From assembly GCA_020241125.1 (NCBI GenBank), contig GCA_020241125.1_4708.1: a DNA stretch of 64,000 nucleotides. The stretch is one strand, 5' to 3'. The stretch's first letter is position 1; every line of letters starts with the position of its first letter. The translations under genes were made by a program, and so were the position numbers. The stretch comes from a phage. Under the pieces are notes generated by a model. It saw nothing but the letters and a program-made list of their open reading frames with translations, searched no databases and was not told the origin of the DNA. Below are positions 4,928-59,003 of this stretch, piece after piece.

Positions 4928-5555
4928 TGATACCTTCTATTAGTTGTACAGCAACTTCTTTTTCGGTGCTATAAAAGAACTTGCGATGGAACTGAACAAG
5001 AAGTTTTTCGAATTTACATTGAACGATCTTTTTGCGTTCGATATGACCCAGGGAGAGCAAAGCACCCATGCAACGTACCGCTTGTTCGAGAACTTGTTTC
5101 GCGGTATCGTGATCGTCCGGTAACGGTAAATCTTCCTCATCGTCTTTAGCGATAAGGCGTCTGATGATGTTATCGATACGTATCTCATCACCGTTAATAA
5201 AAGCCCCCTTCTCCCAGTCATCGAATCGTTGATGGATTCGACGTTGTAAGTTGGCCCTGTCTTCCATTAACTCTTTCAACTGGCTTTCTAAATGGGATAC
5301 GGTACGGCGGTCGGTTTCAGTGAAGTTTTCCGATTCTTTGTACCACCAATCATTACGCGATAGTAAATCGTTAACGCGCGAAATCGTCCGACGACACTCA
5401 CTAACAAGCCCGTCACCATTCGGTAGCTCTGTACCAAAATAGCATTTGTATTTATAACGCATAACACGGATTAAACGTTTCGCTAGAAAACCTTGCCTTT
5501 CCAGTTTCTTCTTCAGTTGTGTGTATTTCTCTTCTTTTGTTTCCATTAATTCCAT
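4914..5555 (-). CDS. hypothetical protein (213 aa)
   Basis: ORF track. Confidence 0.55.
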   Translation of the reverse strand: MELMETKEEKYTQLKKKLERQGFLAKRLIRVMRYKYKCYFGTELPNGDGLVSECRRTISRVNDLLSRNDWWYKESENFTETDRRTVSHLESQLKELMEDRANLQRRIHQRFDDWEKGAFINGDEIRIDNIIRRLIAKDDEEDLPLPDDHDTAKQVLEQAVRCMGALLSLGHIERKKIVQCKFEKLLVQFHRKFFYSTEKEVAVQLIEGINEVK

Positions 5556-5944
5556 GATGTTGTACCTCGTTCAGCAATCAGGAGAGTCGTGGTTGTGCTT
5601 TTCACTAATCTATTAAAGTCTTGATATATCCGCCTGAGGGATGATTTCAAATCACAATAACGGCTGAAATAAACCTTCAAGTCATCTTTTGTCACAGTCT
5701 CCGTATTTATTTTCGTAGAAACACCGAGATCGATAAACTCTTTTCTTAATTGGGATAATTCATCAAGAAGTCGATGATGGCTTAGATAAATAACAGATTT
5801 ATCGGATAACAACTCGCCGGTTATCCGGCTCTGGCGTTCATCGAAATATTGGAGCCGCCATTCAATTCGCTTACGTAATTTATCAAGTAAATCAACAAAA
5901 GCGGTATAGCTGTTAACGGCTAGGTTAACTTGACTCGTTATCAT
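5546..5944 (-). CDS. hypothetical protein (132 aa)
   Basis: ORF track. Confidence 0.5.
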   Translation of the reverse strand: MITSQVNLAVNSYTAFVDLLDKLRKRIEWRLQYFDERQSRITGELLSDKSVIYLSHHRLLDELSQLRKEFIDLGVSTKINTETVTKDDLKVYFSRYCDLKSSLRRIYQDFNRLVKSTTTTLLIAERGTTSWN

Positions 5945-8509: not shown

Positions 8510-9394
8510 TCAATAACGACCGTAGCGTTCCTCGAGCCGTTTTGGTTTTCTCAGAAGGCTATCTTTAAGTGGTACGACGTCGATATCAACACTCTCTGAG
8601 TAATAGCCGTTAGAACTACCATACCAACGGATAACAACACAACCCTTTGCAGTACGGATATGGTAAAATGTCCATTGTATACGTTCGCTGTAATAACCGT
8701 AGTTATCGGTTCTTTCCTCGGTTCTTTCTTCAGCACTGAGTATCTTTTCACCGATGATATCATTAATATCGCCGTCAATGTCTTCAAGATACACCTCTTC
8801 GCAGCAATCCTGCTGATGACAGAATTCGACAACGTTTCCATCACCACGATAGAAAAGAAGGGCGATACCGTTTCGTAATTGCTCGCTCGTTACATCAGAC
8901 ACACAATGCAAACTTTTATCGTCGGTAATCACCAAGACGTTGTTGATTACATGTCCGGCAAGCGCTCCGATCTTATTTACCGTGATAATCGGACGAACCG
9001 GTTCAGATTGAACGATAGGAATACGGACACAACCAATTAAAGCCATCCGTCCTTTCTTTGGTCTAACCGCAAGATACGGTGATTTTCTTGGGTGGTTATG
9101 TAGTCGTATTTCTACTTCGTTGAATTTAATCCCGTATGAACACAGAAAATAATTGAATAGTTTACGGAATTCCTCGGTTGCTTCTTGCAACGTGATGTTA
9201 TTTACTGTGAGTTTATGTCCCCTGAACACCCGGGTTAGATCGATAACATCCAGCGTTTTGAAATATATTTCCGTAAGGGGATGACCTGTGTATTCCAGGC
9301 AAGTAATTGTTCTTTGAACCACGATTTTAGGTTGTGCACCTTTAAAACGTTTCAGGTATTTAACACGATAGCGTGTATGATCTGATGTTAACAT
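8510..9394 (-). CDS. hypothetical protein (~294 aa; start moved to internal ATG with GGAGAGGAG RBS)
   Basis: ORF track 8510..9493; the longer N-terminus would overlap a terminator hairpin. Confidence 0.5.
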   Translation of the reverse strand: MLTSDHTRYRVKYLKRFKGAQPKIVVQRTITCLEYTGHPLTEIYFKTLDVIDLTRVFRGHKLTVNNITLQEATEEFRKLFNYFLCSYGIKFNEVEIRLHNHPRKSPYLAVRPKKGRMALIGCVRIPIVQSEPVRPIITVNKIGALAGHVINNVLVITDDKSLHCVSDVTSEQLRNGIALLFYRGDGNVVEFCHQQDCCEEVYLEDIDGDINDIIGEKILSAEERTEERTDNYGYYSERIQWTFYHIRTAKGCVVIRWYGSSNGYYSESVDIDVVPLKDSLLRKPKRLEERYGRY

Positions 9395-9467
9395 TTTAAT
9401 CTCCTCTCCCGACTTCAGAGAATTCTTAAAATCCGTTAGTTTTGATAGATAGGGTAAGACGGCATAA

Positions 9468-9490
9468 AAGCATCCCATTACGGGATGCTT
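9468..9490 (-). terminator. hairpin (AAGCATCCC/GGGATGCTT) with UUUUAUGCCG tail in minus sense
   Basis: Inverted repeat directly after stop of 9502..10050. Confidence 0.5.
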
Positions 9491-9501
9491 CATTAATCAG
9501 C

Positions 9502-21607: not shown

Positions 21608-23062
21608 ATGAAACTCAAACAAAGCTGGAAAGACGAACTTCTCGCGTTAGTAAACAGCAAAAACAGTTTACAACTGACATTAGACGATGTAAAATTTGAA
21701 CTAACGGCACCGGTAAGCGAAGTGCCTGGAACGGTCGTTGTTACAATCAAACCGAACGATAATAGTCGCTACTTTAACGAGCAGTCTCTGACCTACATCC
21801 GTCGAGACATCGCTAAAAACTTCACCGGGATCCCGTTACGGGTTATCGTTAAGCAAGATACCGCTGTAAGGGATATCATCAATACGATTGCTGAACGTTA
21901 CGGATTGGTATTTGACACAGCCGTCGACTTCCTCGAATCCGAGCTGAATAAACAAATTACGTTCGCAGACACCGGTATTAAAGACATTACGGTTCCGGTT
22001 GCAAACACGTCTTATGTTTGGGCGGGTAATCTTCAGTTCAATATTGCTAACGATACGTTAAGCTTGATTACTATCATCAAGAAAACCGATCTTACGAATC
22101 TGGTTTATCTGGATGGTGTTGAAGCTGACACATCTGGTTCGTTACTATTAGCAACCGCAGCACTTGTTAACGAACACGTAAATGAACCGATGGTTGAAAA
22201 CGAAGATATCGTTAATGAATTTATTAACGTTCTTAATACTCTAGCCAAATATGGTGACATAACCGGCGATGAATTAGATGCCGCCTTACAAGCGTACGAT
22301 GAAGCAGAAAACAGGAATAAAACCACGGTAATAACTCTTGGTGATATCCAGTGTGTTGCAACAGAAAAAGACGATTGGGAAATTGGACGTTTACGCGGTC
22401 AGATGGTTCTCGCGCTCAAATCCGATAAATACCCGGAGCCCGATAACACGTTCAGGTTGTTTACGAATGGTGGTGACGTATCGCTAACGTTAAACACAAT
22501 GAAAGATATAAGTATCGATTGGGGTGATGGGAATAAAGTAACGTTGGATGCTGAAGAAAGATACGCGCACCACACATACGCCGACAATAACCAGTACCAA
22601 ATCGAAATTGTGTCTCGTACGGACCCAGATGTGCTGCGACCAAATTATATTTCTGGGAGTGAGATAACCGAAGTAATTCACTGGGCTACTACTTCAACAA
22701 TAGCTCTGAATTTTGTTGGATGCGATAATTTAGCGACTGTTCCAGATGAGATCCCAACTTCGTGGACAACGTTGGACAGCATGTTTGAAAGTTGTACGAA
22801 TTTGAATGATCCGTCTATCTCTAACTGGAATACAAGTAACATCACATCAATGAATGGTATGTTCGGCGGATGCACTAAATTTAACCAACCTTTAGCTGCC
22901 TGGGATGTCAGCTCAGTAACTGACATTGGTGGTATGTTTAACGGATGCAACAGTTTTAACCAAGATTTAAGTGGGTGGCGATTACCGTCAGGAGTAACCC
23001 ACGACAATTACGATAGTGGTGCTTTCTCGTGGCAGACGGAACATAAACCGACGTTCCAGTAA
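21608..23062 (+). CDS. protein with C-terminal DUF285/BspA-type leucine-rich repeats (484 aa)
   Basis: C-terminal repeats NFVGCDNLATVPDEIPTSWTTLDSMFESCTNLNDPSISNWNTSNITSMNGMFGGCTKFNQPLAAWDVSSVTDIGGMFNGCNSFNQDLSGW match the FxxCxxF-NQDIS-xWDVSxVTxMxxMF pattern. Confidence 0.7.
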   Translation: MKLKQSWKDELLALVNSKNSLQLTLDDVKFELTAPVSEVPGTVVVTIKPNDNSRYFNEQSLTYIRRDIAKNFTGIPLRVIVKQDTAVRDIINTIAERYGLVFDTAVDFLESELNKQITFADTGIKDITVPVANTSYVWAGNLQFNIANDTLSLITIIKKTDLTNLVYLDGVEADTSGSLLLATAALVNEHVNEPMVENEDIVNEFINVLNTLAKYGDITGDELDAALQAYDEAENRNKTTVITLGDIQCVATEKDDWEIGRLRGQMVLALKSDKYPEPDNTFRLFTNGGDVSLTLNTMKDISIDWGDGNKVTLDAEERYAHHTYADNNQYQIEIVSRTDPDVLRPNYISGSEITEVIHWATTSTIALNFVGCDNLATVPDEIPTSWTTLDSMFESCTNLNDPSISNWNTSNITSMNGMFGGCTKFNQPLAAWDVSSVTDIGGMFNGCNSFNQDLSGWRLPSGVTHDNYDSGAFSWQTEHKPTFQ

Positions 23063-44103: not shown

Positions 44104-44346
44104 TTAGCAATGGTTGTTAGTTGCTTCTATTTCGTCAAGATAAGGTTCTACGTCATCGCCCTCCACGAATTCGTTGAACCAACAGTCAATAGTGGAAATA
44201 ACCGGTGACTGGTGTTCACATTTCTTAGATACCTTAAAAGGTACGTTATTATCCATCATGCCGAGTTCGGGTCGAAAACGCCCGAAATGTTTCGCAGTCC
44301 AAATGTCTGGGACGATATGGTTGTTCATTGCGTCGCCGTCAAAGTC
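44104..44346 (-). CDS. RNA polymerase beta'-like N-terminal subunit, exon 2 (begins at the DFDGD catalytic motif)
   Basis: Reading frame opens 3 codons upstream (UGA) and encodes DFDGDAMNNH...; cf bacterial beta' NADFDGDQMAVH. No RBS; joins exon 1 to give GYNA|DFDGD. Confidence 0.6.
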   Translation of the reverse strand, partial: DFDGDAMNNHIVPDIWTAKHFGRFRPELGMMDNNVPFKVSKKCEHQSPVISTIDCWFNEFVEGDDVEPYLDEIEATNNHC

Positions 44347-44696
44347 CACATATCTTCAGTATGAATCGCTACTTCATACCCGCAGCATTACCTGCAGCTC
44401 CTGGTGTTACCAGGACGGAGAGATCATCTCATCACCCACGAAGGGTGTTCCGCGCTACCCTCAGCGAATTCGAGGGACATGATCGTTGAACCTTCCACCG
44501 ATAATCGGTGGCTAGGCTGCTGATTAAACATTGTACGTTGGGGTGGCATCCTGGTTCAGGACTGTCGTTGAAGCCTCCCAACATCCACTCACTTATTTCC
44601 GCCTTATCGGCTCCCATAAGGGCAGAGTGGCTTTAGCCCGTCTCAGCAATTCACGGAATTCAAGCTCTTCCTTTCAGAAGGCAGGGCCTCATCTGA
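44347..44696 (-). other. putative self-splicing intron (group I-like, 350 nt, no ORF) interrupting the beta' gene
   Basis: Exon 1 frame ends ...KGYNA and exon 2 starts DFDGD, restoring the YNADFDGD motif; 5' exon ends in U and insert ends in G; insert carries GGUUCAACGAUCAUGUC and AAGAUAU near its 3' end (resembling group I R and S elements) and several stem-loops (CCUGGUAACACCAGG). Confidence 0.55.
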
Positions 44697-45947
44697 AGCA
44701 TTGTATCCCTTAAGGATCATCACGCTTAACCCGATGGTATTATCCTGCGGATCGCGTTTAACCTTGGTGATTTCAAGACATTGGTTACTGCTTCGGTCAA
44801 GTGATGGGTTTCGAACAAAACCGCACACAATCCCATCGAACGGTGTATCAGCAATAAGCTCATCGTGCAGCTCACTCATCATCGGATGATAATTACGGAC
44901 ATGTTCCGCAACGAACGCACGTGCTGCTCTCGGTGAATAACCACGATGGAATAACTTGGATTGGATATGTTCTTTATTGGTTAAAGTAAATGGTGCGTAT
45001 GGGAAATGCAGATGATAATAACGATGGTTCGCTGTTATCGAACTGATTACAGTACGCGTGGTGAATGGATGTAATGTACCTAATATGTTTTTACGTGTGA
45101 TACCTTTCTTCTTACCGATGAACTCATCGAAAATCGCCGCATGGTATTGCAGTAGCTTCAATTGCACTTTCGCCATCCAGTTTTCTTTCTTTCTGGCGCT
45201 CAAAGGTGTTGTTGGGTGATAGATACTATTCAACGTACCGATAGCATCGATCGCACCTTCCATTTTGCTATCCGCATAACGACCGGTTGGCGTATTCTCG
45301 ATAACGAACATCATGGCCGCAGGAAAGCTGATATACTGACTGAAGAACTTATCACGATGGATACGGATGAATTCTCGTAGCGTATCAACTTTCTCCGTGT
45401 TCTTCGGTCCGCGTAACGTCGGTCCTTTATACAAGATCTCCATGATGCGATCGAAGTTCTGTATAAAACTATTTACACCGCGACGTATCCCGAATACATC
45501 GAATTGCTGCTCCAGATAGTTCTTGAGTTCGATGGGTCGTTTTACATTTGGACGGTAACTGGCATCAATGAGCCACGTCATCGTTTCAAAGCTTTTGATA
45601 TTCAACTCGCTTGCCAGCACGAGATGGACCAACGGGTTAATGAACGCATCAATTCCTTCAGGAACACGCGCCCAAACCGTCGAACGAATCTCTTGTTCTG
45701 CTGGATAGGTTACAACCGTTTTACAGTTCGGACACACCGTGCCGAGCAGCTCACCACGATTGTAGAAACCACAACCACATTGTGGCGTGATATCCAACGT
45801 ATCGCTGGAGTAAACACGGGTGATAAAACTGTTTAATTTCTTCTTCTCTTCGACGACTTTTGTATCGTAATCATTCAACAAAATCGGCGTGAAAGGAAGT
45901 TCTGCGAGCTGTCTATCGAAACTCACGATATCGAGCATGATGGCCAT
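44697..45947 (-). CDS. RNA polymerase beta'-like N-terminal subunit, exon 1 (417 aa to the GYNA junction)
   Basis: N-terminal zinc finger CGCGFYNRGELLGTVCPNCKTVV (cf beta' CxC...CxxC); TAGGAG RBS; unspliced frame continues 17 codons to a stop. Confidence 0.65.
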
Positions 45948-46039: not shown

Positions 46040-47935
46040 TTAGAACAGGTTGAATGCCCCACCCATGTTGTTAACGCCAACATTCGGACGATCGCTACGT
46101 GCGTAGATGTTACCGGAGATGTTACCCAGACCACGAGCACGTGCTGCCATGTTACCACGAACAGCGGTACCTGCCAGATGCTGGATGTTCTCAGGACGGA
46201 TGGTGAAGCCAGCATCAGCAGCGGCCTCGATCAGCGCCTGCAGTGCTAACGGATCGAAGTCGTAACGCATTGCCCAGCCGGTTTGTTCCCAGCTACCAGA
46301 CAGAACACGATCAATGATTTCGTGACGAGCGACAACACGCTGAGACATCGTCATATCGGTACGGTCGAAGCTGTCTTCCCAAGCTTCTACGGTATCCGGG
46401 TTAGTGATGTTCATCATGTACAGATCGTCCATATCACGAATATCGTGACGGTGACCATCCTGGTGGTTATAATGACCCAGCGGGATACGGTTACCGGTAG
46501 CGTAGACCAGTGGTGCGCCGTACTGATATTTCTTGCTGAAGCAACCCAGGGTAGTATCATCGAAGGCACGGAAGAGTGCTTTGTAACCTTCGGAGATTTC
46601 CCGGACTTCACCTTCAACTTTGCCCGTATAGATCTTCTCAGCCGCCGGGATCATACGCAGCAGCCAGCTGTATTCGCCTTCTTCCGGTACGTCGATAGAA
46701 ATCAGCAGAGACGGATACAGTACCTGTTGCAGGAACTTGTAAATCTGCTCGTTGGTTTGAGTAGACAGATCCAGCGGTGCGGTAACTTCCGGATCCAGTA
46801 CCATCGCCAGAGCACCCGGGTTATGCGGACCAATACCACGAGCAGCGTTGCTGATTAAAGACTGTGCCCACGCCATACCGCTGTTCAGCGTAGCGATGGT
46901 GCCAATCAGACCCAACACGAAAGTGTTCGGCGTGAACGCATCCAGCTCCAGCGGGTAAGCGCTGGTCATCACGTAACGCGGTTGGTATTGTACAGTCGGC
47001 GGTACCGGATAACCGTTAACCAGAACAGGGCCTTGGTTGAAGGTCGGGTTCTGCGGGCTGTAGGTCAGGTCAATGTAACCGGTGGTTGCGACCAGACGCT
47101 GCTGACTATCGTAATCGCTCATCGCTTGACGGATGCGGTTAGAGATAGTTACAGTGATGTCAGAACGCACAGGGTTACCAACAATATCGCTGTCCTGCAT
47201 ACCGCTGGTGTTGTACTGAACGCTGCTGATTGGCTGATCGCTTGCCATCATGCCCAGGTTGAACTGCGGCAGACCCAGTTTATCGCCGAGACGGATTTCG
47301 ATCGCGGTTTGGATTGCGTTATCTGCAGCAGACAGCAGGGTGGTTGCCAGATGCGCAGATTCAGCGGTGATTTCATTGGTCACCACAGCCAGACCAGCGA
47401 TACGAGCAGTACCATTAGACTTACCACCGATAGCTGCATACATTGCCGCCATGACTTCGTTGATGAACGTACCGTTCAGGTTATCAACCCAGGTACGCGG
47501 CACCAGAATGTTACCATGCGGGCCTTGTTCTTCACGACGCGGCAGCGGAGCCAAACCGGCAACCAGTGGAAGCACATAACCGAAGAAGTGGTTATGGTCA
47601 CCAACTTTTGCACCGCTCATAACAACCAGGGTCGGATACGGTACACTGTATTGGTTAGGATCGACGGTCACCATGATGAAGTCGTCTTTGAATCCTTTAT
47701 CTTCCAGTTCTTTTTCCATCAGACGACGGAGATTCAGTACCTGCTCGGAGCCAGTATTACGGCTAATACGACGGCTCAGTGTACGGTTGATCGTACGCAT
47801 CGTATGAGTTACTTTAGGCTGGCCAGCAAAATCTGCAGCGGTTTCCAGCGCCTCATCAGCACGTTGTGCGGTGCGGGTTTCAGCTGCACGAATTTCTACA
47901 TTATCGTTACCGTTATTACGTACGTCTAAGCCCAT
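46040..47935 (-). CDS. chmA: candidate chimallin / phage-nucleus shell protein (631 aa); major capsid protein not excluded
   Basis: Large ORF with strongly optimal codon usage, AAGAGGAA RBS, promoter-like motif 70 nt upstream, directly upstream of the beta'-N gene (order as recalled for phiKZ gp54-gp55), ~8 kb from PhuZ. No motif confirmation possible by eye. Confidence 0.45.
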   Translation of the reverse strand: MGLDVRNNGNDNVEIRAAETRTAQRADEALETAADFAGQPKVTHTMRTINRTLSRRISRNTGSEQVLNLRRLMEKELEDKGFKDDFIMVTVDPNQYSVPYPTLVVMSGAKVGDHNHFFGYVLPLVAGLAPLPRREEQGPHGNILVPRTWVDNLNGTFINEVMAAMYAAIGGKSNGTARIAGLAVVTNEITAESAHLATTLLSAADNAIQTAIEIRLGDKLGLPQFNLGMMASDQPISSVQYNTSGMQDSDIVGNPVRSDITVTISNRIRQAMSDYDSQQRLVATTGYIDLTYSPQNPTFNQGPVLVNGYPVPPTVQYQPRYVMTSAYPLELDAFTPNTFVLGLIGTIATLNSGMAWAQSLISNAARGIGPHNPGALAMVLDPEVTAPLDLSTQTNEQIYKFLQQVLYPSLLISIDVPEEGEYSWLLRMIPAAEKIYTGKVEGEVREISEGYKALFRAFDDTTLGCFSKKYQYGAPLVYATGNRIPLGHYNHQDGHRHDIRDMDDLYMMNITNPDTVEAWEDSFDRTDMTMSQRVVARHEIIDRVLSGSWEQTGWAMRYDFDPLALQALIEAAADAGFTIRPENIQHLAGTAVRGNMAARARGLGNISGNIYARSDRPNVGVNNMGGAFNLF

Positions 47936-49350: not shown

Positions 49351-51504
49351 TTACTCTGCGGTTTCTTGCTTCGGTAAATAACTTGCTGCGATGTCTTGGG
49401 CTAACAATGTATTGTTTTTATTCGAGATGAAAATACCATAACTTTCCATTAACGCGTAATACGAACGCACGAGCGTAGAGATCAATCGACGAATATCCAT
49501 ACCTTGAATAAAGATATCAGGAAGCCCGGAGGCTTCGATCACCGGTAATGGTATCGTTAAGTTGCTTATCGTTTTCTTATCGTTACGTACAATCCAATCA
49601 CGGAAACGTTGTTGTAACCCTTTATCCTCCCAGGAATCAATCCAATCGTTAAGAAGCGTTTTGTTCTTCGTCGCCAACGGCACACGAACCCCAACATAGG
49701 GTGGTTCCTGGCAATGGCCGTACGATTGAGCAAACACCTCTTCCCACATATCGTAAGACTGTTTCGTTACTGCAACATGCGGTTTCACTTTAACACGTGT
49801 TAAGAAATCAGGATCACCACGTTTCATGGACTCAACGATTTCGTTTTCTAACGAGATAATATCGTCAAGAACCAATCGAATGCTGATCTTCTCGTTACGT
49901 AACAGCTTATCCATGATACCACACATCATGCGTTCAACACGTTTGACGATCATTTTTGGTGCTGACGCATCGCGCATAACCGGACCTTTCAATTCCAGCT
50001 TCGGTGGATTGATAGGAACCCCTTCACGCATGGTCATGTAACCGTAATAGTTTTTACCCATCGAGGTTAACGACAGAATCAAGAACATATATTCGTTCTT
50101 CATTTCCATCACGTACATATGCTCTTTCGCCACACCGATATTACCAGAACACATCGCCATCAGATGAACCGTAATCTGCGTAACCAGATAGATAAGCGTG
50201 TTTGCTAAGCGCGTCGAAACTGGATTGATCTCCATATTTCCAAATCGCCACTGAACCCACTCCTGGCAGGTAAACACCGTCGAGTCGGTATCAGACAACA
50301 CACCCACTTCACGGATTGCTGATGGGAAAGCATAAACACCAGCCGGTTGGTTCTCGGTACGCCAGAACGCCATAATCAAATCAGCATAGCTTTGAATACG
50401 CTGTAGCATTAATTTTGTCGTTGCTGCAGTAAGACGATAACCAAGCTCATTTCCTTTTTCTAGCGCTACGTAAATCGCTTCCCCATTCAAGAACTCCGTA
50501 CATTGTGCTGTAATCCAAGCGACCGTGTTGTTATCCATGGAAGCAATAATGGCTTTAGCCTCTTCCATCGTTTCAACAGGTTCGGATGCCAGCTCGCATA
50601 ACGAATCAAGAAAATCTCGAACAAATTCAGGATTAAGCTCACGTAACGAGTACAGGTTATTGCTATACATGTAGCAGGCGCGTTCCAGTGGGGTTAAACC
50701 GGTAATTAACTCCCGGATAGTCAGTTCTTTCTCTGGGTCGAAAGTATATCGATGCAAGCATTTCGATACGTTAGCCCAAACCTCTTCCGGCGTAGGGTAA
50801 TGTAGTTTGTATTTTACCATTACCTGTTCAATGGCTTTACGATCGCTGTTGCGGACAATACTCACGATGTTTTCAATTGCGATATCACAATCGTAATAAT
50901 GGAAATTGCCCGCAAGGAAGCGTTCGTTGTTCGCATTGGCTGAACCTGAAGCACAGCGACACGTTGTCGTTAAACTTGGATGCGCAATTGGATTATAAAA
51001 AGGGTTAAACTTGGACGCCTGGGTTCCTGACAAACTGTTGTTATCTAACTTGGTGTTGGTTTGTCGTTTATCGTGTAACTCAGCTTCATCTTTACGTCCG
51101 TGTGCTTGCGCTATCGACATTTGTTTCTTTTGTTTCTTACGCAACTTACCGTTTTCAACCGCAAAGTCGCTTAGCACACTGGAACGTGTTTCACGTGGAT
51201 AACAGTTAGCCCACACCGGCGTGATAATTAAATTATTTTCTTTAATATCATTGAAGTATTGGCTGAACTTGATGACTTCTTTTTCTCGATTTCCTTCGGT
51301 GCGCTGTGTTAATACAAGGCAGTCGGGATCAACCATCCCGTATTTTCCACCAGGACGAACCGTATCAAGGACAAACTGCAACGCTTCCTGCTGTGATATC
51401 CCACGCATGCGCATTAAGAACAGGGTATAATCCTGTACCGCTTCTTTGGTCATATCCAACGTACGGCCATATCCGTTTTCATCGTAAAAGAACGGATTTT
51501 CCAT
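49351..51504 (-). CDS. hypothetical protein (717 aa); candidate divergent family-B-like DNA polymerase catalytic module
   Basis: VGVLSDTDSTVF resembles polymerase motif C (YGDTDS); downstream GKNYYGYM resembles the KxY motif; motifs A and B not convincingly found. Confidence 0.55.
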   Translation of the reverse strand: MENPFFYDENGYGRTLDMTKEAVQDYTLFLMRMRGISQQEALQFVLDTVRPGGKYGMVDPDCLVLTQRTEGNREKEVIKFSQYFNDIKENNLIITPVWANCYPRETRSSVLSDFAVENGKLRKKQKKQMSIAQAHGRKDEAELHDKRQTNTKLDNNSLSGTQASKFNPFYNPIAHPSLTTTCRCASGSANANNERFLAGNFHYYDCDIAIENIVSIVRNSDRKAIEQVMVKYKLHYPTPEEVWANVSKCLHRYTFDPEKELTIRELITGLTPLERACYMYSNNLYSLRELNPEFVRDFLDSLCELASEPVETMEEAKAIIASMDNNTVAWITAQCTEFLNGEAIYVALEKGNELGYRLTAATTKLMLQRIQSYADLIMAFWRTENQPAGVYAFPSAIREVGVLSDTDSTVFTCQEWVQWRFGNMEINPVSTRLANTLIYLVTQITVHLMAMCSGNIGVAKEHMYVMEMKNEYMFLILSLTSMGKNYYGYMTMREGVPINPPKLELKGPVMRDASAPKMIVKRVERMMCGIMDKLLRNEKISIRLVLDDIISLENEIVESMKRGDPDFLTRVKVKPHVAVTKQSYDMWEEVFAQSYGHCQEPPYVGVRVPLATKNKTLLNDWIDSWEDKGLQQRFRDWIVRNDKKTISNLTIPLPVIEASGLPDIFIQGMDIRRLISTLVRSYYALMESYGIFISNKNNTLLAQDIAASYLPKQETAE

Positions 51505-53613: not shown

Positions 53614-54215
53614 GTACGAAGGATTTGGTTAACTTCGCTTCGCATCACCGATAAACGACAACGAAAATCGAACTTCTCATCGTGGCCGTAGTCTTCATGC
53701 ATGAAAACTTCATCCAAAACGAACTCAAGTTGCATGTCGACATCACGGCCAGAGATATTCCGTTTGTACAGATACAGTTCAATCGTGTCGTAAAGCAACG
53801 TGTGAATATCATAATTTCCGTTCGGTGAGAAATAAGGTAATCGCTCATCGAGCATCGTAAACAGATATTCGCTGTAGTTTAATAACGGGATGATGTACCG
53901 ACGCCCTGTCTGTGGTGTGCGAATATGTATCGAAACCTGACTTGGGCGCGGAATAACCGACGGCTTAGAATCGTCTCTCTGAAATTGCTCTAAAGATCGC
54001 AACAAAGGTGGCCGCATTGTAACTCTCCAACGCCCAATTGTAAGGCCCTTCCAACATGTGTTCCCATACGTGAATAAACTCACTACCGAAGACAGGCTCC
54101 AGCGCCATGGTGAGATTCGTAAGTTCTGACGCAGCCGCATGGTAAGCATCAACATGTCTTTCCATTGACGGATCGTCTTCATTGAAAATACGTTCTGTGT
54201 CGCCAGCCCGCTCAA
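53532..54215 (-). CDS. hypothetical protein (227 aa; boundaries uncertain, overlapping frames)
   Basis: Protein-like composition only in the C-terminal two-thirds; a second frame (53965..54594) overlaps. Confidence 0.35.
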   Translation of the reverse strand: MSGLATQNVFSMKTIRQWKDMLMLTMRLRQNLRISPWRWSLSSVVSLFTYGNTCWKGLTIGRWRVTMRPPLLRSLEQFQRDDSKPSVIPRPSQVSIHIRTPQTGRRYIIPLLNYSEYLFTMLDERLPYFSPNGNYDIHTLLYDTIELYLYKRNISGRDVDMQLEFVLDEVFMHEDYGHDEKFDFRCRLSVMRSEVNQILRTWIPRVEDWWHFNFTLDTSMTLWLVVE

Positions 54216-55189
54216 TAAGTTCGGTAATGAGATCTGTCCATGTCTCGTGACACGTCATCATTTCCTGTTCTCGACTTAGTATGCCGATGTCTGCGTGGAC
54301 GCTGGACTCGAACCGGTCTAAAAGGACCCGAAGAACGTGCACCTTGTCGATGTATTTCACCGTTATCCAGGAAAGCGGTTGCCACCGACTCAGCATCCAT
54401 CCGGTACTCGGGAACCCCAAACTCATATAGTACGGGTTGCACCGGACCGAAGACGGAGCGACGTTGTTTAAATCGCTCCTTAAGGGCAAGGCCTTGTTTA
54501 ATATAAACGGGTTCATTGGCGAGTTGTTCCGCTTTTCGTTTTGCGTGAGCCAATCGAAGTTCTTCCAATTGCCCAAGCCATTCAAATTGTTCATCTGTTA
54601 GCTCCTGGGGACGTTCAACAATCGCGCCAGACGGGCAGATATTGATCGTAATGTTAATTGACGGCATCGCCATCACTCGAGGATTACTATTACGTACGCG
54701 GACAACATGTTCGGTTGCTGATTTACGATCGACGCAATACTCTGTTTCTTGGAACTCAAATGCTTTTAACGGTGTTGGTTTTATTTGACGTTTAGGAACG
54801 CGGCCAAGATCAACAATATAGGCATAATCGCACACACGTTCTATTCCGTAAATACGGTTATCCGACCAGTTCTTACCAAACAGCTTATTGTGGTGATAAG
54901 ACAGATATTCGGTTACCATACCCTGGACAACATCGAAGTCTTCTCGAAATTCAGGTTGGTACCAAATCGGACCGAGAATATCTGCGAACGATTCATGACG
55001 ATATCGAGGATCATGTCGAGTCCAGGTCATTCTCTGATTAAGATCGAAATCCACCAACAACTCGGTTAATTGCAATTTTTCCTTCGGAGAAAGCTGGCGT
55101 TGATGATGCAAACTCAGGCAATCGATAAGCGGTAATGAAACCCACGATGCTAATGTGTACAAATCGATCCTGGCTAATCTCTTGGTCAT
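54212..55189 (-). CDS. hypothetical protein (325 aa; C-terminal Arg-rich stretch may be out of frame)
   Basis: ORF track; overlaps frame 53965..54594. Confidence 0.45.
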   Translation of the reverse strand: MTKRLARIDLYTLASWVSLPLIDCLSLHHQRQLSPKEKLQLTELLVDFDLNQRMTWTRHDPRYRHESFADILGPIWYQPEFREDFDVVQGMVTEYLSYHHNKLFGKNWSDNRIYGIERVCDYAYIVDLGRVPKRQIKPTPLKAFEFQETEYCVDRKSATEHVVRVRNSNPRVMAMPSINITINICPSGAIVERPQELTDEQFEWLGQLEELRLAHAKRKAEQLANEPVYIKQGLALKERFKQRRSVFGPVQPVLYEFGVPEYRMDAESVATAFLDNGEIHRQGARSSGPFRPVRVQRPRRHRHTKSRTGNDDVSRDMDRSHYRTY

Positions 55190-55280
55190 ACTCTTTTCCT
55201 AAGTCCCCATTGTTTATACACACGATATCTGGGAATAGTTAAAATATACGGCGTAAAACGAAGCAGGAGAGTTTCTGACG

Positions 55281-55601
55281 TCATTTTCTCCCTCTTCGAA
55301 TACTACCGATACCTCTTTCGTCTAAGACGTCCCAGGCACGCTTTATTTCATCCTCCGTTGCTCTGGTATCTGGAGGGACAACCATAACACAGTCGTGGAA
55401 CGGCCAATGTGTAGGTCTGGGGTTAGCGAACAAATCATCCCATTCAAATGTCCATTCTTTCTTTGAGCGATTGTAGTAGAGCGTAAGGTACGTGTTGGTA
55501 TACGCCGGATAACCGCGCATAACTTCAATATCCTTACGATCTTGCCGTTCCTGATTCCAATCGTTAAACCGCTTTCTTATTTTCTCCCACCACTTTCCCA
55601 T
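55281..55601 (-). CDS. hypothetical protein (106 aa)
   Basis: ORF track. Confidence 0.5.
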   Translation of the reverse strand: MGKWWEKIRKRFNDWNQERQDRKDIEVMRGYPAYTNTYLTLYYNRSKKEWTFEWDDLFANPRPTHWPFHDCVMVVPPDTRATEDEIKRAWDVLDERGIGSIRRGRK

Positions 55602-55623
55602 GCTTTCTCCTACACGGCATAAA

Positions 55624-55645
55624 AGCCTGCCCCGAAGGACAGGCT
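55624..55645 (-). terminator. hairpin AGCCTG-CCCCGAAGGA-CAGGCT with CUUUUAUGCCG tail in minus sense
   Basis: After stop of 55655..55855. Confidence 0.45.
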
Positions 55646-55654
55646 CGATAGAAC

Positions 55655-55855
55655 TTAACGACCATCCAATTTCAATGAAGGATGGTTGACGATATGTGCG
55701 TGTTTTGCTGGGTCATATAGCTGATATGGAAAATAGCCATGCCATTGACGGCCTTGGCATTTCGTACACAGGAACTGACCAACACCTTGTCGATTCTCGT
55801 AAGCGAGTTCGGTACTATCAACATGACCGCAACGTTCGCAGATAAACAGCGACAT
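55655..55855 (-). CDS. small zinc-ribbon protein (66 aa)
   Basis: CERCGH...CTKCQG (two CxxC pairs). Confidence 0.45.
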   Translation of the reverse strand: MSLFICERCGHVDSTELAYENRQGVGQFLCTKCQGRQWHGYFPYQLYDPAKHAHIVNHPSLKLDGR

Positions 55856-55892
55856 AGCGCATCCCCATTCACTTGAACCTTTTGGTTCGGCA

Positions 55893-56873
55893 TTAGAAAA
55901 GCAAGAAACCGCTATTCTTCGCTTCCGCTACAGTTTCGTCACCAACTTTCGGCGCTTGTTGACGTGCGTTACGATGTTCGATGTAACGTTTCGCTTCGTC
56001 CGCGATCTGTTTGATAATACCCCCTAAACGATCGGTACTTAAAACAAACGACGTCGCTTCACGAATTGGGCTGCTTTCAGGCACAAAACCATCGCAGCTG
56101 TAAATAGCGCTAACGCCCATGACTTTTGTCGCGTCTTTCGGATAAAGCGTACAGAAAGCAATCGGGCTATCGTTCTCTTTCGTCCAATCGTATCCCATGA
56201 ACGTATTCAGTTCGGTGATCGTTGGTTCCAAACCGGTAACACGTGGATGGTTTAAGAAGTTTTCCAGGTCGGCGCTGTCAAGACGACGGTTCTCGCCAGA
56301 AAACAGAACACAAAGCTGGCTAATAACAACCTGCACGTCCAGGTTGACATCCTGCTCCGATTTCCCATTTTCGCCATTCATGTGATAGCTAACAATCACT
56401 GGACGTTTCAACCCTTCTGCAGCCGCCATCAGTCCTTTGAAGGTGCGATCGGCGTTGATCGTTTGACGCTCGTCATCGAACGAGGCAACGATGCAACACA
56501 CCACACGTTCACCACGTTCCAGCAGGTTAGCAACCAACGCAGGACCTGCAACAGAACCTGAACCACCGCTCAGACTAAAGACCACGATATTAAATTTACC
56601 TGGCGTATGCTTATTCAGAATACCCGGGATTTGTGAACAGATCAGTTCAGCGTTCTCATCACGCTTCTTACCAGAACCGTCTAACTCACGACCGGCTACA
56701 TCTTTAAAGATGTAAATATGATCGTCACCCAGTGTGCTATCGCGTAGGTTAGCGCGGCTGGTATCGACATACGTCATGCTGTGTAATCCTTTCGCGACTT
56801 CGCCTTCAAATGCTGAGCCGATTTCGCCACCACAACCACCGACAGCCCAAATATGTACTTGGTTCTCTTGCAT
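55893..56873 (-). CDS. phuZ: phage tubulin PhuZ-like (tubulin/FtsZ-fold GTPase, 326 aa)
   Basis: N-terminal VHIWAVGGCGGEIGSAF (cf tubulin IHIQAGQCGNQIG) and VVFSLSGGSGSVAGP (tubulin signature GGGTGSG); size matches PhuZ. Confidence 0.8.
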   Translation of the reverse strand: MQENQVHIWAVGGCGGEIGSAFEGEVAKGLHSMTYVDTSRANLRDSTLGDDHIYIFKDVAGRELDGSGKKRDENAELICSQIPGILNKHTPGKFNIVVFSLSGGSGSVAGPALVANLLERGERVVCCIVASFDDERQTINADRTFKGLMAAAEGLKRPVIVSYHMNGENGKSEQDVNLDVQVVISQLCVLFSGENRRLDSADLENFLNHPRVTGLEPTITELNTFMGYDWTKENDSPIAFCTLYPKDATKVMGVSAIYSCDGFVPESSPIREATSFVLSTDRLGGIIKQIADEAKRYIEHRNARQQAPKVGDETVAEAKNSGFLLF

Positions 56874-56937
56874 GTGAACTCCTAACTTAATATGTATTTA
56901 ACGTACAATGAATCTTTCTTTGCTAAAGGGGTGACCC

Positions 56938-57780
56938 ATGGGTGCTATTGACTACAGTGTAGATCGTATCTGTCGTACAATACCGGCAGATATCCTACAG
57001 TATTGCTATATCGATCGTTACGACTGGCGTAATCGCTATCCTCGTTCCGTAGAAGACATCATTACCGATTGGGTAATCCGTAAACGGGTTATCGGCGACA
57101 TCGATATCTACGGGGGACTACAAACCGTTATTCCCCTTGATGATGCAGGTGTCACAATCGAAGAAGTCACCATTAACTGTTATGTTTTCCACATTCCGTT
57201 GGAAGCCACACAGGGACGTTATATCACGTCCGCATTATCCATTATTTCAGGGAGCGTGAACAACTACGGAATAAACTATAACGGGCAATGGGGCGCTTTC
57301 AACCAAACCCAATTTCAACGTCAGCTTTGTGGGTGGAACCCCGCAAGCAACACGTTACAGCAAGGGATGAACGCGTTCGGTCCCATGAACGTTCTTAGTA
57401 CAGCCAACGTTGATATCATCGCCCCTAACACCATCATGGTGAACAACGTCACGCCTGTACAATTTCCCCTGAGCCTACGCTGTTTCCTTGCCCACGATCC
57501 GGAACTTACCAACCTCAGCATGGAGGTTTGGAACGACTTCTACAAACTCTGTTTATACGCCACGCAAAGTGACATCTACAACAGAACCGTTATCCGTCTC
57601 GATAGAGGTGTTACAGCACAAGGACAAGAAGTCGGTGCATTCAAGGAATACATCGATCGCTTTGCTGATGCTGAAAACACATATCAGGAATTCCTGAACG
57701 AAACGTGGGCTGGCGTTGCTGCCTGGAACGATCCACAAACTAAACGTCGCGCCATTCGACTACAAACCGGTTACTTCTGA
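56938..57780 (+). CDS. hypothetical protein (280 aa)
   Basis: Plus ORF with AAAGGGG RBS; terminator follows. Confidence 0.55.
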   Translation: MGAIDYSVDRICRTIPADILQYCYIDRYDWRNRYPRSVEDIITDWVIRKRVIGDIDIYGGLQTVIPLDDAGVTIEEVTINCYVFHIPLEATQGRYITSALSIISGSVNNYGINYNGQWGAFNQTQFQRQLCGWNPASNTLQQGMNAFGPMNVLSTANVDIIAPNTIMVNNVTPVQFPLSLRCFLAHDPELTNLSMEVWNDFYKLCLYATQSDIYNRTVIRLDRGVTAQGQEVGAFKEYIDRFADAENTYQEFLNETWAGVAAWNDPQTKRRAIRLQTGYF

Positions 57781-58307
57781 TTAACGACAGCTTCCTCCCT
57801 CGGTGTTTTCGAGGGAGGTATTTGCCGTTTAAACACTTTCAGCACGTTCGCAAATTCAGCGGCAATAATACAGGCCGAGGTTGATAGCTTATTACTGAAA
57901 ATGAGATCGTCCGGTAAACAATCGAACTGAATACCGTATTGCGTCTTTGTCTCATCAACGATCAATGACGGTGTCGATCTTGTCTTCGCGATGTCGGTGA
58001 TATACAAACGTAGAAATAATTCACCGTCTTCGCTATCCATAAAACGATAGGCGTTACCAGAAAACGCAACACATGGCGTAACGATAAATTGAACACGATC
58101 GTCGGTCGGATGGATATTTAACCAACGTTCGATATCATTACTACTCACATTTCGCATATTTACTACGGTAAAAGCAAATAGCGTATCGTGATGTTTGGAA
58201 TAATGCAGCACGTACGCCGCACCTTTCTTTCTGTGAATCCCTTCAATGTATTCTATTGTCGTATAGCCGGATTTATATAGCTTTACTTGCGGTTTATCAC
58301 TCATCAT
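57771..58307 (-). CDS. hypothetical protein (~178 aa; start at ATGATG with GGGAAGGG RBS)
   Basis: Track ORF 57771..58388 overlaps the upstream gene; internal start chosen. Confidence 0.4.
   Translation of the reverse strand: MMSDKPQVKLYKSGYTTIEYIEGIHRKKGAAYVLHYSKHHDTLFAFTVVNMRNVSSNDIERWLNIHPTDDRVQFIVTPCVAFSGNAYRFMDSEDGELFLRLYITDIAKTRSTPSLIVDETKTQYGIQFDCLPDDLIFSNKLSTSACIIAAEFANVLKVFKRQIPPSKTPREEAVVNQK
57794..57830 (+). terminator. intrinsic terminator (CCTCCCTCG/CGAGGGAGG + TATTTGCCGTTT)
   Basis: 14 nt after stop of 56938..57780; overlaps the 3' end of convergent minus ORF. Confidence 0.6.
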
Positions 58308-58603
58308 AACAACCCTTCCCGTTTCATCGCAGCACGCATACTTGCGTAAAGCGCATTCTTCATCGCACCTGGACGCAACGGATAACAAATCTCATATCGA
58401 CGTCCTTGTTTTACAGCAATTTTCCTTCCATTCAGAAACAACGTGCCATTATCCAGCAACAACTCACCTTGTAGTACCATGAGTCCTGCTTTAACATGAC
58501 GTCCTTCTTCTTTCGTTAAGACCTTATAGCCGTGTTTATCCAATAACCACAATTCGTAGATACCATGCGCAGCCTTCGGCATTACTTTCTTCTTCGTCGT
58601 CAT
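58304..58603 (-). CDS. hypothetical protein (99 aa)
   Basis: ORF track. Confidence 0.45.
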   Translation of the reverse strand: MTTKKKVMPKAAHGIYELWLLDKHGYKVLTKEEGRHVKAGLMVLQGELLLDNGTLFLNGRKIAVKQGRRYEICYPLRPGAMKNALYASMRAAMKREGLL

Positions 58604-58615
58604 GGAAGATCCTCC

Positions 58616-58990
58616 TTAAACTCCTTGTCGGATCATCACCAACCGGAGCATGTTGTATTCCAATGTAGCGCTTTCTAATTCGAATTCATATCGATACCAG
58701 AAATTCGGCTCTAATTGACCTACAACACATTTACGAACATCTGTCTGCACCTTCCTCGACAACACCTGTAACAGTTGTGTTATCTCCGGCTTGAAGTAAT
58801 GCGCCAAACCTAACTGATCAGAATAAAACAGGCCACAATCAAAGATGGCCTGTAAAATAACATATTCAACCATCAGGTGACGCGCATCGGGGTCAGGGAA
58901 TGGCGAACGTAAAGCGAGATCTAACACATCGACGATTGGGCCGACATAAATGGCGGCACGGTACTCACGAATAACACTGATGTTATCCAT
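58616..58990 (-). CDS. hypothetical protein (124 aa)
   Basis: ORF track. Confidence 0.5.
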   Translation of the reverse strand: MDNISVIREYRAAIYVGPIVDVLDLALRSPFPDPDARHLMVEYVILQAIFDCGLFYSDQLGLAHYFKPEITQLLQVLSRKVQTDVRKCVVGQLEPNFWYRYEFELESATLEYNMLRLVMIRQGV

Positions 58991-59003
58991 GATAACCTAT
59001 TCG

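Follow-up and report, generated by a model that had tools for sequence, protein, structure and literature searches.

A PhuZ tubulin of the Goslar type in a 64,000-nucleotide stretch of a Goslarvirus genome

The tubulin-like protein PhuZ of nucleus-forming jumbo phages (Chimalliviridae) is described as a spindle protein that positions the phage nucleus in Pseudomonas and Erwinia phages; the PhuZ of phiKZ makes a spindle that centres the nucleus, and that of 201phi2-1 makes three-stranded filaments and a bipolar spindle (review PMC12908238). The gene counts as accessory, and about one third of chimalliviruses lack it (PMC12908238, PMC12768965). In Escherichia phage vB_EcoM_Goslar, PhuZ filaments instead wrap the phage nucleus as a vortex (Birkholz et al., PMC9891218). 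Here I describe a PhuZ gene in a phage contig (NCBI GenBank assembly GCA_020241125.1, contig GCA_020241125.1_4708.1); the whole stretch of 64,000 nucleotides that was analysed is called the window below. The gene is almost certainly the PhuZ of a Goslarvirus, a tubulin/FtsZ-superfamily GTPase of the nucleus-forming jumbo phages whose filaments are predicted to rotate the phage nucleus and not to centre it. The identity of the protein, its fold, its catalytic residues, the purifying selection on it and its genomic context are established here, whereas the filament, the vortex, the rotation and the phenotype of the D202A mutant are the data of others on Goslar. A PhuZ of the Goslar type already has a RefSeq name, an in vivo characterisation and a solved structure, so the finding as such is already known. 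Its main use is correct annotation, and it fixes the window as Goslarvirus, a nucleus-forming jumbo phage of E. coli and Salmonella.

Identity, fold and selection

The protein encoded in the window is identical at 324 of its 326 residues (99.4%) to Goslar HOV27_gp234, annotated in RefSeq as "tubulin PhuZ" (180856-181836), the two replacements being A59V and E229D (Goslar residue first). Of the 981 nucleotides of the gene 22 differ, and a codon-by-codon comparison places these differences in 20 synonymous and 2 replacement codons. The rates of replacement and synonymous substitution (dN 0.0026, dS 0.097; Nei-Gojobori) give a ratio, omega, of 0.027, which therefore points to strong purifying selection on a gene that is neither a chance open reading frame (ORF) nor a relic. 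The same comparison for chimallin, the nuclear shell protein, gives a higher omega of 0.094. Such selection on an accessory gene, stronger by this measure than that on chimallin, suggests that nucleus rotation is worth retaining in this lineage.

These values also bear on the proposal that the gene is a decaying accessory copy on its way out of the genome. PhuZ is dispensable, about a third of chimalliviruses have lost it, and some members of the cluster of PhuZ sequences at 90% identity are shortened (277 residues, with partial records of 275 and 237), several of them lying on small contig fragments. In the window, however, the frame is intact and of full length, every catalytic and nucleotide-binding residue is present, and both the ribosome-binding site and the terminator-like hairpin (Table 1) are conserved. 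Together with an omega below that of chimallin, this leaves decay next to no chance of being correct.

The earlier note on this DNA, which was made from the letters alone, named the product a PhuZ-type phage tubulin, and database comparisons bear this out. Residues 1-323 match positions 1-321 of the 323 in the profile of PHROG 4733, "tubulin PhuZ", that is, from end to end (E 3.2e-68). The best sequence matches in the PDB are Goslar PhuZ (9pm9, E 1.6e-219), phiKZ gp39 (3zbp, 8.7e-29) and PhuZ-201, the protein of 201phi2-1 (3r4v, 3rb8 and 3j5v, E about 6e-15); the sole remaining match is the unrelated YgiW, at E 0.61. An AlphaFold2 model made with 25 homologs has a mean predicted local distance difference test (pLDDT) of 87.7 and a predicted template-modelling score (pTM) of 0.86. 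The model and a Foldseek search with it agree on the tubulin/FtsZ fold, with a GTPase domain, helix H7, an activation domain and helix H11, the last being a long C-terminal helix at residues 283-305. The top Foldseek match in the PDB is 9pm9, "PhuZ Tubulin from phage Goslar (locally refined monomer)", released 2025-12-24, at a template-modelling (TM) score of 0.92, followed by phiKZ PhuZ at 0.77-0.86 (3zbq 0.83-0.86) and then PhuZ-201 at 0.79-0.84 (3r4v/3rb8). A literature search for the publication behind entries 9pm9 and 9pmk, the second of which is the deposited model of the Goslar PhuZ filament, found none.

Both GTP-binding signatures that the earlier note had seen are present, GGCGGEIG at residues 12-19 and SGGSGS at residues 102-107. 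Conservation was read from two alignments, one of 14 and one of 25 homologs. G103, G104, D199 and D202 are invariant in both; G12, G13 and G15 are invariant or at least 90% conserved, S105, G106 and S107 of the T4 loop are at least 90% conserved, and N140 and N166 are invariant across the 25 homologs. The strict tubulin signature in PROSITE is [SAG]-G-G-T-G-[SA]-G, and SGGSGSV departs from it at two positions, where T is replaced by S and the final G by V. The note's reading of SGGSGS as the counterpart of GGGTGSG holds as an equivalence, not as a strict match. The PhuZ proteins of phiKZ (GGASGST) and 201phi2-1 (GGGSGSV) depart from the pattern likewise.

Tubulins of the TubZ kind belong to type III partition systems, in which TubZ acts with a TubR adaptor and centromere repeats. 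A protein of this kind in the window would serve DNA segregation, moving its replicon by way of TubR bound to such repeats. The TubZ structures of phage c-st and Bacillus thuringiensis are indeed detectable by fold, and Aylett et al. even name phiKZ gp39 "TubZ", noting the H11 helix and tail that the proteins have in common (PMC3678025). The structure matches to TubZ are nevertheless much weaker than those to PhuZ (TM 0.57-0.66, 12-13% identity), and phage c-st TubZ, CetZ, FtsZ and B. thuringiensis TubZ all stand below every PhuZ in the Foldseek ranking (TM 0.53-0.73, 11-16% identity). No iteron-like repeat array was found in 55200-57900 or in 54000-59000. The flanking genes at 55655-55855, 56938-57780, 55281-55601 and 54212-55189 yield no identifiable DNA-binding adaptor, matching just a sub-cutoff zinc-ribbon model, families of unknown function (DUF7484, phrog_3179, phrog_5903) or nothing, and the genome is that of a lytic chimallivirus. 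A role in partition is thus scarcely credible. The comparison with plasmid TubZ and FtsZ that the earlier note had proposed comes out in favour of PhuZ, the best homologs being phage PhuZ proteins and TubZ and FtsZ being far more distant. FtsZ was also considered as an identity in its own right and rejected: SGGSGSV is not the strict GGGTG[ST]G, FtsZ structures rank below every PhuZ, and the score against Pfam family PF00091 lies under the cutoff.

A tblastn search of 50,697 phage records found a homolog of this PhuZ in 173. Two of these are the GenBank and RefSeq copies of Goslar, at 99.4% identity, and the remainder lie below 60%, with identities of 28-33% among the non-Goslar matches listed. 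In NCBI, E. coli O157 and Salmonella enterica serovar Bovismorbificans assemblies contain the identical protein under the label "hypothetical protein", the contigs being as long as 239,671 bp, and entries for Shigella sonnei, Shigella flexneri and Salmonella Panama include close variants; the cluster at 90% identity holds 111 member sequences. These deposits in bacterial assemblies are phage contigs, consistent with Goslar-like lytic phages hidden there: mining bacterial assemblies for lytic phage contigs took Goslarvirus from 1 to 237 genomes (PMC12768965). The window itself is probably part of a phage contig of this kind.

Nucleus rotation and the C-terminal tail

What the protein does in an infected cell is best judged from Goslar itself, where 92-97% of nuclei rotate, at 44-50 nm/s (PMC9891218). 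Goslar PhuZ carrying D202A assembles at much lower expression and is dominant negative; the vortex is abolished and just 29% of nuclei rotate, at 18 nm/s. The Goslar nucleus is not enriched at midcell, and its position along the cell is unaffected by D202A (PMC9891218). The residue mutated in that study, D202, is conserved in the window PhuZ. Because the Goslar protein differs at only two residues and its nuclei rotate uncentred, rotation and not centring is predicted for the window PhuZ. The earlier note had cited phage tubulins of this size as centring the nucleus in phiKZ-like phages. Its statement is right for the phiKZ-like Pseudomonas phages but fails for the Goslar lineage, in which PhuZ rotates the nucleus (PMC9891218).

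The other possibility is that the protein behaves like the PhuZ of phiKZ and 201phi2-1, building a pole-anchored bipolar spindle that pushes the nucleus to midcell. It has the family, the fold and the catalytic residues in common with those proteins, and Pseudomonas and Erwinia phages do use a PhuZ spindle to position the nucleus (PMC12908238). However, its identity to phiKZ PhuZ is just 27% and to 201phi2-1 PhuZ 23%, whereas the Goslar protein, different at 2 of 326 residues, forms a vortex around a nucleus without enrichment at midcell, and D202A in Goslar cuts rotation while leaving positioning unchanged (PMC9891218). I consider a midcell spindle in this phage very improbable.

The mechanism that would follow for a rotating Goslar-type PhuZ can be outlined as follows. 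GTP would be bound at the T1 and T4 loops, and subunits would join head to tail, each supplying the T7 loop (D199/D202) that the GTPase site of its neighbour needs to be complete; hydrolysis of GTP in the polymer by means of the T7 loop of the adjacent subunit is the general tubulin/FtsZ mechanism and is described for phiKZ PhuZ (PMC3678025). Helix H11 and the tail (306-326) would run along the neighbouring subunit and presumably stabilise the polymer, and GTP hydrolysis would drive filament dynamics. In infected E. coli the filaments would form a vortex around the chimallin-shelled nucleus, as expected from the 99.4% identity to the Goslar protein. By pushing on the cell membrane they would rotate the nucleus without holding it at midcell; the presumed benefit of rotation is that capsids are distributed over the nuclear surface for the packaging of DNA. 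For the exact variant in the window, I infer that assembly is GTP-dependent and that the dynamic filaments move the nucleus, and A59V and E229D probably change nothing in function.

The acidic knuckle of PhuZ was reportedly defined by Kraemer et al. in 2012. The knuckle, formed on the adjacent subunit by an extended C-terminal tail, is described by Aylett et al. 2013 (PMC3678025). In the AlphaFold2 model of the window PhuZ the tail after H11 has low confidence, with pLDDT means of 70, 60 and 47 for successive blocks of 10 residues from residue 301, as expected for a segment that is ordered only in the filament (PMC3678025). The last 20 residues hold three acidic (D312, E313, E317) and two basic residues, for a net charge of -1, as against -5 in PhuZ-201 and -2 in phiKZ. 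The earlier note had pointed to this tail as the place to look for the knuckle needed for filament assembly, and the outcome is divided: the terminal glycine-hydrophobic motif is kept, with G322 at least 90% conserved and followed by FLLF (323-326), but the acidic character of the tail is weak, and D312, E313 and E317 are at most a candidate equivalent of the knuckle.

Several observations count against the assignment or against the function drawn from it. The functional data are those of the Goslar ortholog and not of the exact variant V59/D229. The two most conserved acidic columns in the tail of the family are V315 and N320 in the window PhuZ which, with the net charge of -1, means that the tail contact may differ from the acidic knuckle of phiKZ and 201phi2-1. 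PF00091 scores 29.6 bits, under its cutoff of 33, and PF22334 (TubZ_C_2, the phage tubulin-like C-terminal domain) has no match in the window PhuZ at E up to 1, as against 128 bits in phiKZ PhuZ and 139 bits in that of 201phi2-1. The shortfall in PF00091 is a property of the PhuZ family, because the founding proteins of phiKZ (30.5 bits) and 201phi2-1 (29.9 bits) score alike and also fall under the cutoff. As to PF22334, two relatives at 56-60% identity are similar to the window PhuZ in this respect, one (P0002, 60% identity) scoring 17.3 bits and the other (P0003) nothing; the fold of the activation-domain region still matches, so the absence reflects sequence divergence in the Goslar clade and does not speak against membership. 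The Pfam results by themselves do not decide the matter, and the assignment to PhuZ rests on the PHROG, PDB and fold evidence.

It is conceivable, although I think it unlikely, that in the Goslar-type clade (the window PhuZ, Goslar, P0002 and P0003) the acidic-knuckle contact has been swapped for a mainly hydrophobic one through the G-F-L-L-F end, possibly with the involvement of the zinc-ribbon protein encoded downstream. An altered contact or partner, and not cell geometry, could then explain why Goslar forms a vortex and other phages a spindle.

Neighbouring genes and the interrupted RNA polymerase gene

Goslar positions 125464-188963 align colinearly with the window; nucleotide identity is 93.5-97.8%, and several segments are inserted, deleted or replaced. 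The phage is a Goslarvirus strain or species distinct from Goslar. The earlier note had placed the window in a nucleus-forming jumbo phage, and this is confirmed both by the closeness to nucleus-forming Goslar and by the genes for chimallin, DNA polymerase and beta' of the split RNA polymerase (Table 1). Chimallin differs from its Goslar counterpart at 8 of 631 residues, and the piece of RNA polymerase beta' at 44643-45947 matches positions 1-417 of the 478 in phrog_2987 (E 4.1e-115). The gene order runs from PhuZ through about ten small genes to the DNA polymerase, one gene on the opposite strand, chimallin and RNA polymerase beta'. The order of this block is identical in phiKZ (gp39, gp50, gp54, gp55), in 201phi2-1 (gp59, gp83, gp105, gp107), in Goslar and in L008, a metagenomic relative whose PhuZ is 56% identical.

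Table 1. Coordinates of the PhuZ gene, its signals and coding features, and neighbouring genes in the window
Feature	Position	Strand	Remarks
PhuZ coding sequence	55893..56873	minus	sole ORF at exactly these coordinates; ATG start, 326 residues, stop codon 55893-55895; ortholog of Goslar HOV27_gp234
AGGAG ribosome-binding site (Shine-Dalgarno)	56879..56883	minus	5 nt 5' of ATG; upstream sequence ...AAGTTAGGAGTTCAC followed by ATG
T1 (phosphate-binding) loop of the tubulin/FtsZ GTPase domain, GGCGGEIG	56817..56840	minus	codons 12-19
T4 loop, SGGSGS	56553..56570	minus	codons 102-107; PhuZ version of the tubulin signature GGGTGSG
T7 loop, DSAD	56268..56279	minus	codons 199-202; catalytic D202 (and D199)
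Flexible C-terminal tail QAPKVGDETVAEAKNSGFLLF	55896..55958	minus	codons 306-326, after helix H11 (283-305); region equivalent to the acidic knuckle
Codon 59	56697..56699	minus	GTA (Val) vs GCA (Ala) in Goslar; poorly aligned, gap-rich stretch of the family alignment
Codon 229	56187..56189	minus	GAT (Asp) vs GAA (Glu) in Goslar; conservative change, variable column
Zinc-ribbon-like ORF, CxxC...CxxC	55655..55855	minus	66 residues; 37 nt 3' of PhuZ, co-oriented; ortholog of Goslar gp235 (100% identical)
Terminator-like hairpin AGCCUGUCC-UUCG-GGGCAGGCU, then UUUUAU	55619..55645	minus	GC-rich; ends the PhuZ/zinc-ribbon gene pair
DUF7484 gene	56938..57780	plus	280 residues; divergent from PhuZ; PF24302 E 1.4e-87; phrog_3179
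phiKZ-type divergent DNA polymerase	49351..51504	minus	phrog_2927 E 2.5e-206; between PhuZ and chimallin as in phiKZ and 201phi2-1
Chimallin (phage nuclear shell protein)	46040..47935	minus	phrog_4795 "nuclear shell protein" E 4.9e-52; Goslar gp246 annotated nuclear shell protein
RNA polymerase beta' N-terminal subunit gene	44104..45947	minus	interrupted by a 350-nt intervening sequence, 44347-44696

The adjacency of PhuZ and the DUF7484 gene is also seen in Goslar and in L008 and, according to the annotation notes on Goslar, in Erwinia phage Ea35-70 (gp206, gp207). On the other side, the zinc-ribbon-like ORF has a weak match to Zn_ribbon_Elf1, below the cutoff, and homologs directly 3' of PhuZ in L008 (57% identical) and 179 nt 3' of PhuZ in Xanthomonas phage RTH11 (40% identical). 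The pairing of the two genes is conserved, and the zinc-ribbon protein could be a partner or regulator of PhuZ. The pair ends at a hairpin whose corresponding site in Goslar is annotated as a putative terminator; 57 nt enclosing it fold at -19.5 kcal/mol. A simple consensus terminator scan missed this hairpin, presumably as its U run has just four U, and it was found by reading the sequence. Around PhuZ that scan returned 1 terminator-like site against 2.0 expected, and a scan for sigma-70 promoters returned 3 sites against 3.1 expected by chance. Both scans are uninformative, and for the sigma-70 scan this is expected because the phage is transcribed by its own RNA polymerases.

Elsewhere in the window, a 132-residue ORF without a family match (5546-5944, minus strand) and a 327-residue ORF with a DUF7448 / phrog_2650 domain at residues 210-309 (8510-9493, minus strand) have no counterpart at those positions in Goslar. 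A protein of 484 residues (21608-23062, plus strand) combines a DUF7941 / virion-structural-protein domain at its N terminus with a DUF285 (BspA-like repeat) domain at its C terminus. From about residue 184 its gene is mostly without a nucleotide match in Goslar gp161 (the divergent part being 22156-23029), and the flanks are about 96% identical. This pattern of divergence would fit a swapped receptor-binding or host-range module. Positions 1-660 of the window have no match in the Goslar stretch that was compared (124500-189836), where the colinear alignment begins just after gp123 and gp124.

The gene for the N-terminal part of RNA polymerase beta' is broken at the codons of its catalytic NADFDGD motif by the 350-nt element, which separates ...GYNA from DFDGDAMNNH..., lying between ...AAT GCT (N A) and GAC TTT GAC GGC GAC (D F D G D). 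As in group I introns, the last base of the 5' exon is T and that of the element is G. A search of Rfam matched no family anywhere in the window, this element included, even at E up to 1. In Goslar (L004, 43363-45146) the same gene carries a group I intron (RF00028, 46.9 bits) with the HNH gene gp186 inside the Phe codon, then a 13-nt micro-exon, and then a homolog of the window element after the second Ala codon, 18 nt downstream of the site used in the window. The Goslar cassette of 1,466 bp (168195-169660), which comprises the group I intron core and the HNH endonuclease gp186, is absent from the window phage (44690-44697). At the same motif phiKZ has a like cassette, in which gp55 is followed by the HNH gene gp56 and then by a downstream frame reading ...NTADFDGD.... 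Among contigs of relatives from IMG/VR, one (L007, 4255-5000) has an element of the window type at both Ala sites, and another (L006) has three elements within 39 nt of coding sequence, in the Tyr codon, in the Phe codon (an intron without HNH) and at the second Ala site.

A common structure is predicted for four copies of the element of the window type, and 28 of its 86 pairs show changes in both partners with pairing maintained. The arrangement looks like a hot spot of mobile introns competing for adjacent sites in the active-site codons, from which the elements would be removed by splicing. No paper describing such an intron arrangement in RNA polymerase beta' was found in a literature search. 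A variable set of introns at the active-site codons of an RNA polymerase is more unusual than the PhuZ gene itself.

Comparison with described tubulins

FtsZ (TM 0.53-0.62, 11-15% identity) and CetZ (14-16% identity) have in common with the window PhuZ the fold of the GTPase domain with T1, T4 and T7 loops, the TM scores of the two together spanning 0.53-0.73. Their signature is GGTG[ST]G where the window PhuZ has GGSGS, their C-terminal tails differ, and the window gene is encoded by a phage, a chimallivirus. The TubZ proteins of Clostridium phage c-st and the B. thuringiensis plasmid pBtoxis (3v3t, 4xcq, 2xka, 2xkb) belong to the same superfamily and also have a C-terminal helix and tail.

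The T4 and T7 motifs of the window protein, as well as its glycine-hydrophobic terminus, recur in the founding PhuZ, 201phi2-1 gp59 (3r4v, 3rb8, 3j5v), which however has a strongly acidic tail, IIDADDNVDEDGMVV. Also called TubZ, phiKZ gp39 (3zbp, 3zbq) likewise adopts the tubulin/FtsZ fold and possesses an H11 helix and an extended tail; unlike the window PhuZ it has a clear PF22334 domain and a more acidic tail. The Goslar protein (HOV27_gp234 / Goslar_00201, YP_009820885.1; 9pm9, 9pmk) is of equal length, has every motif including D202 in common with the window PhuZ, and is encoded by a gene whose genomic position and neighbours match those in the window.

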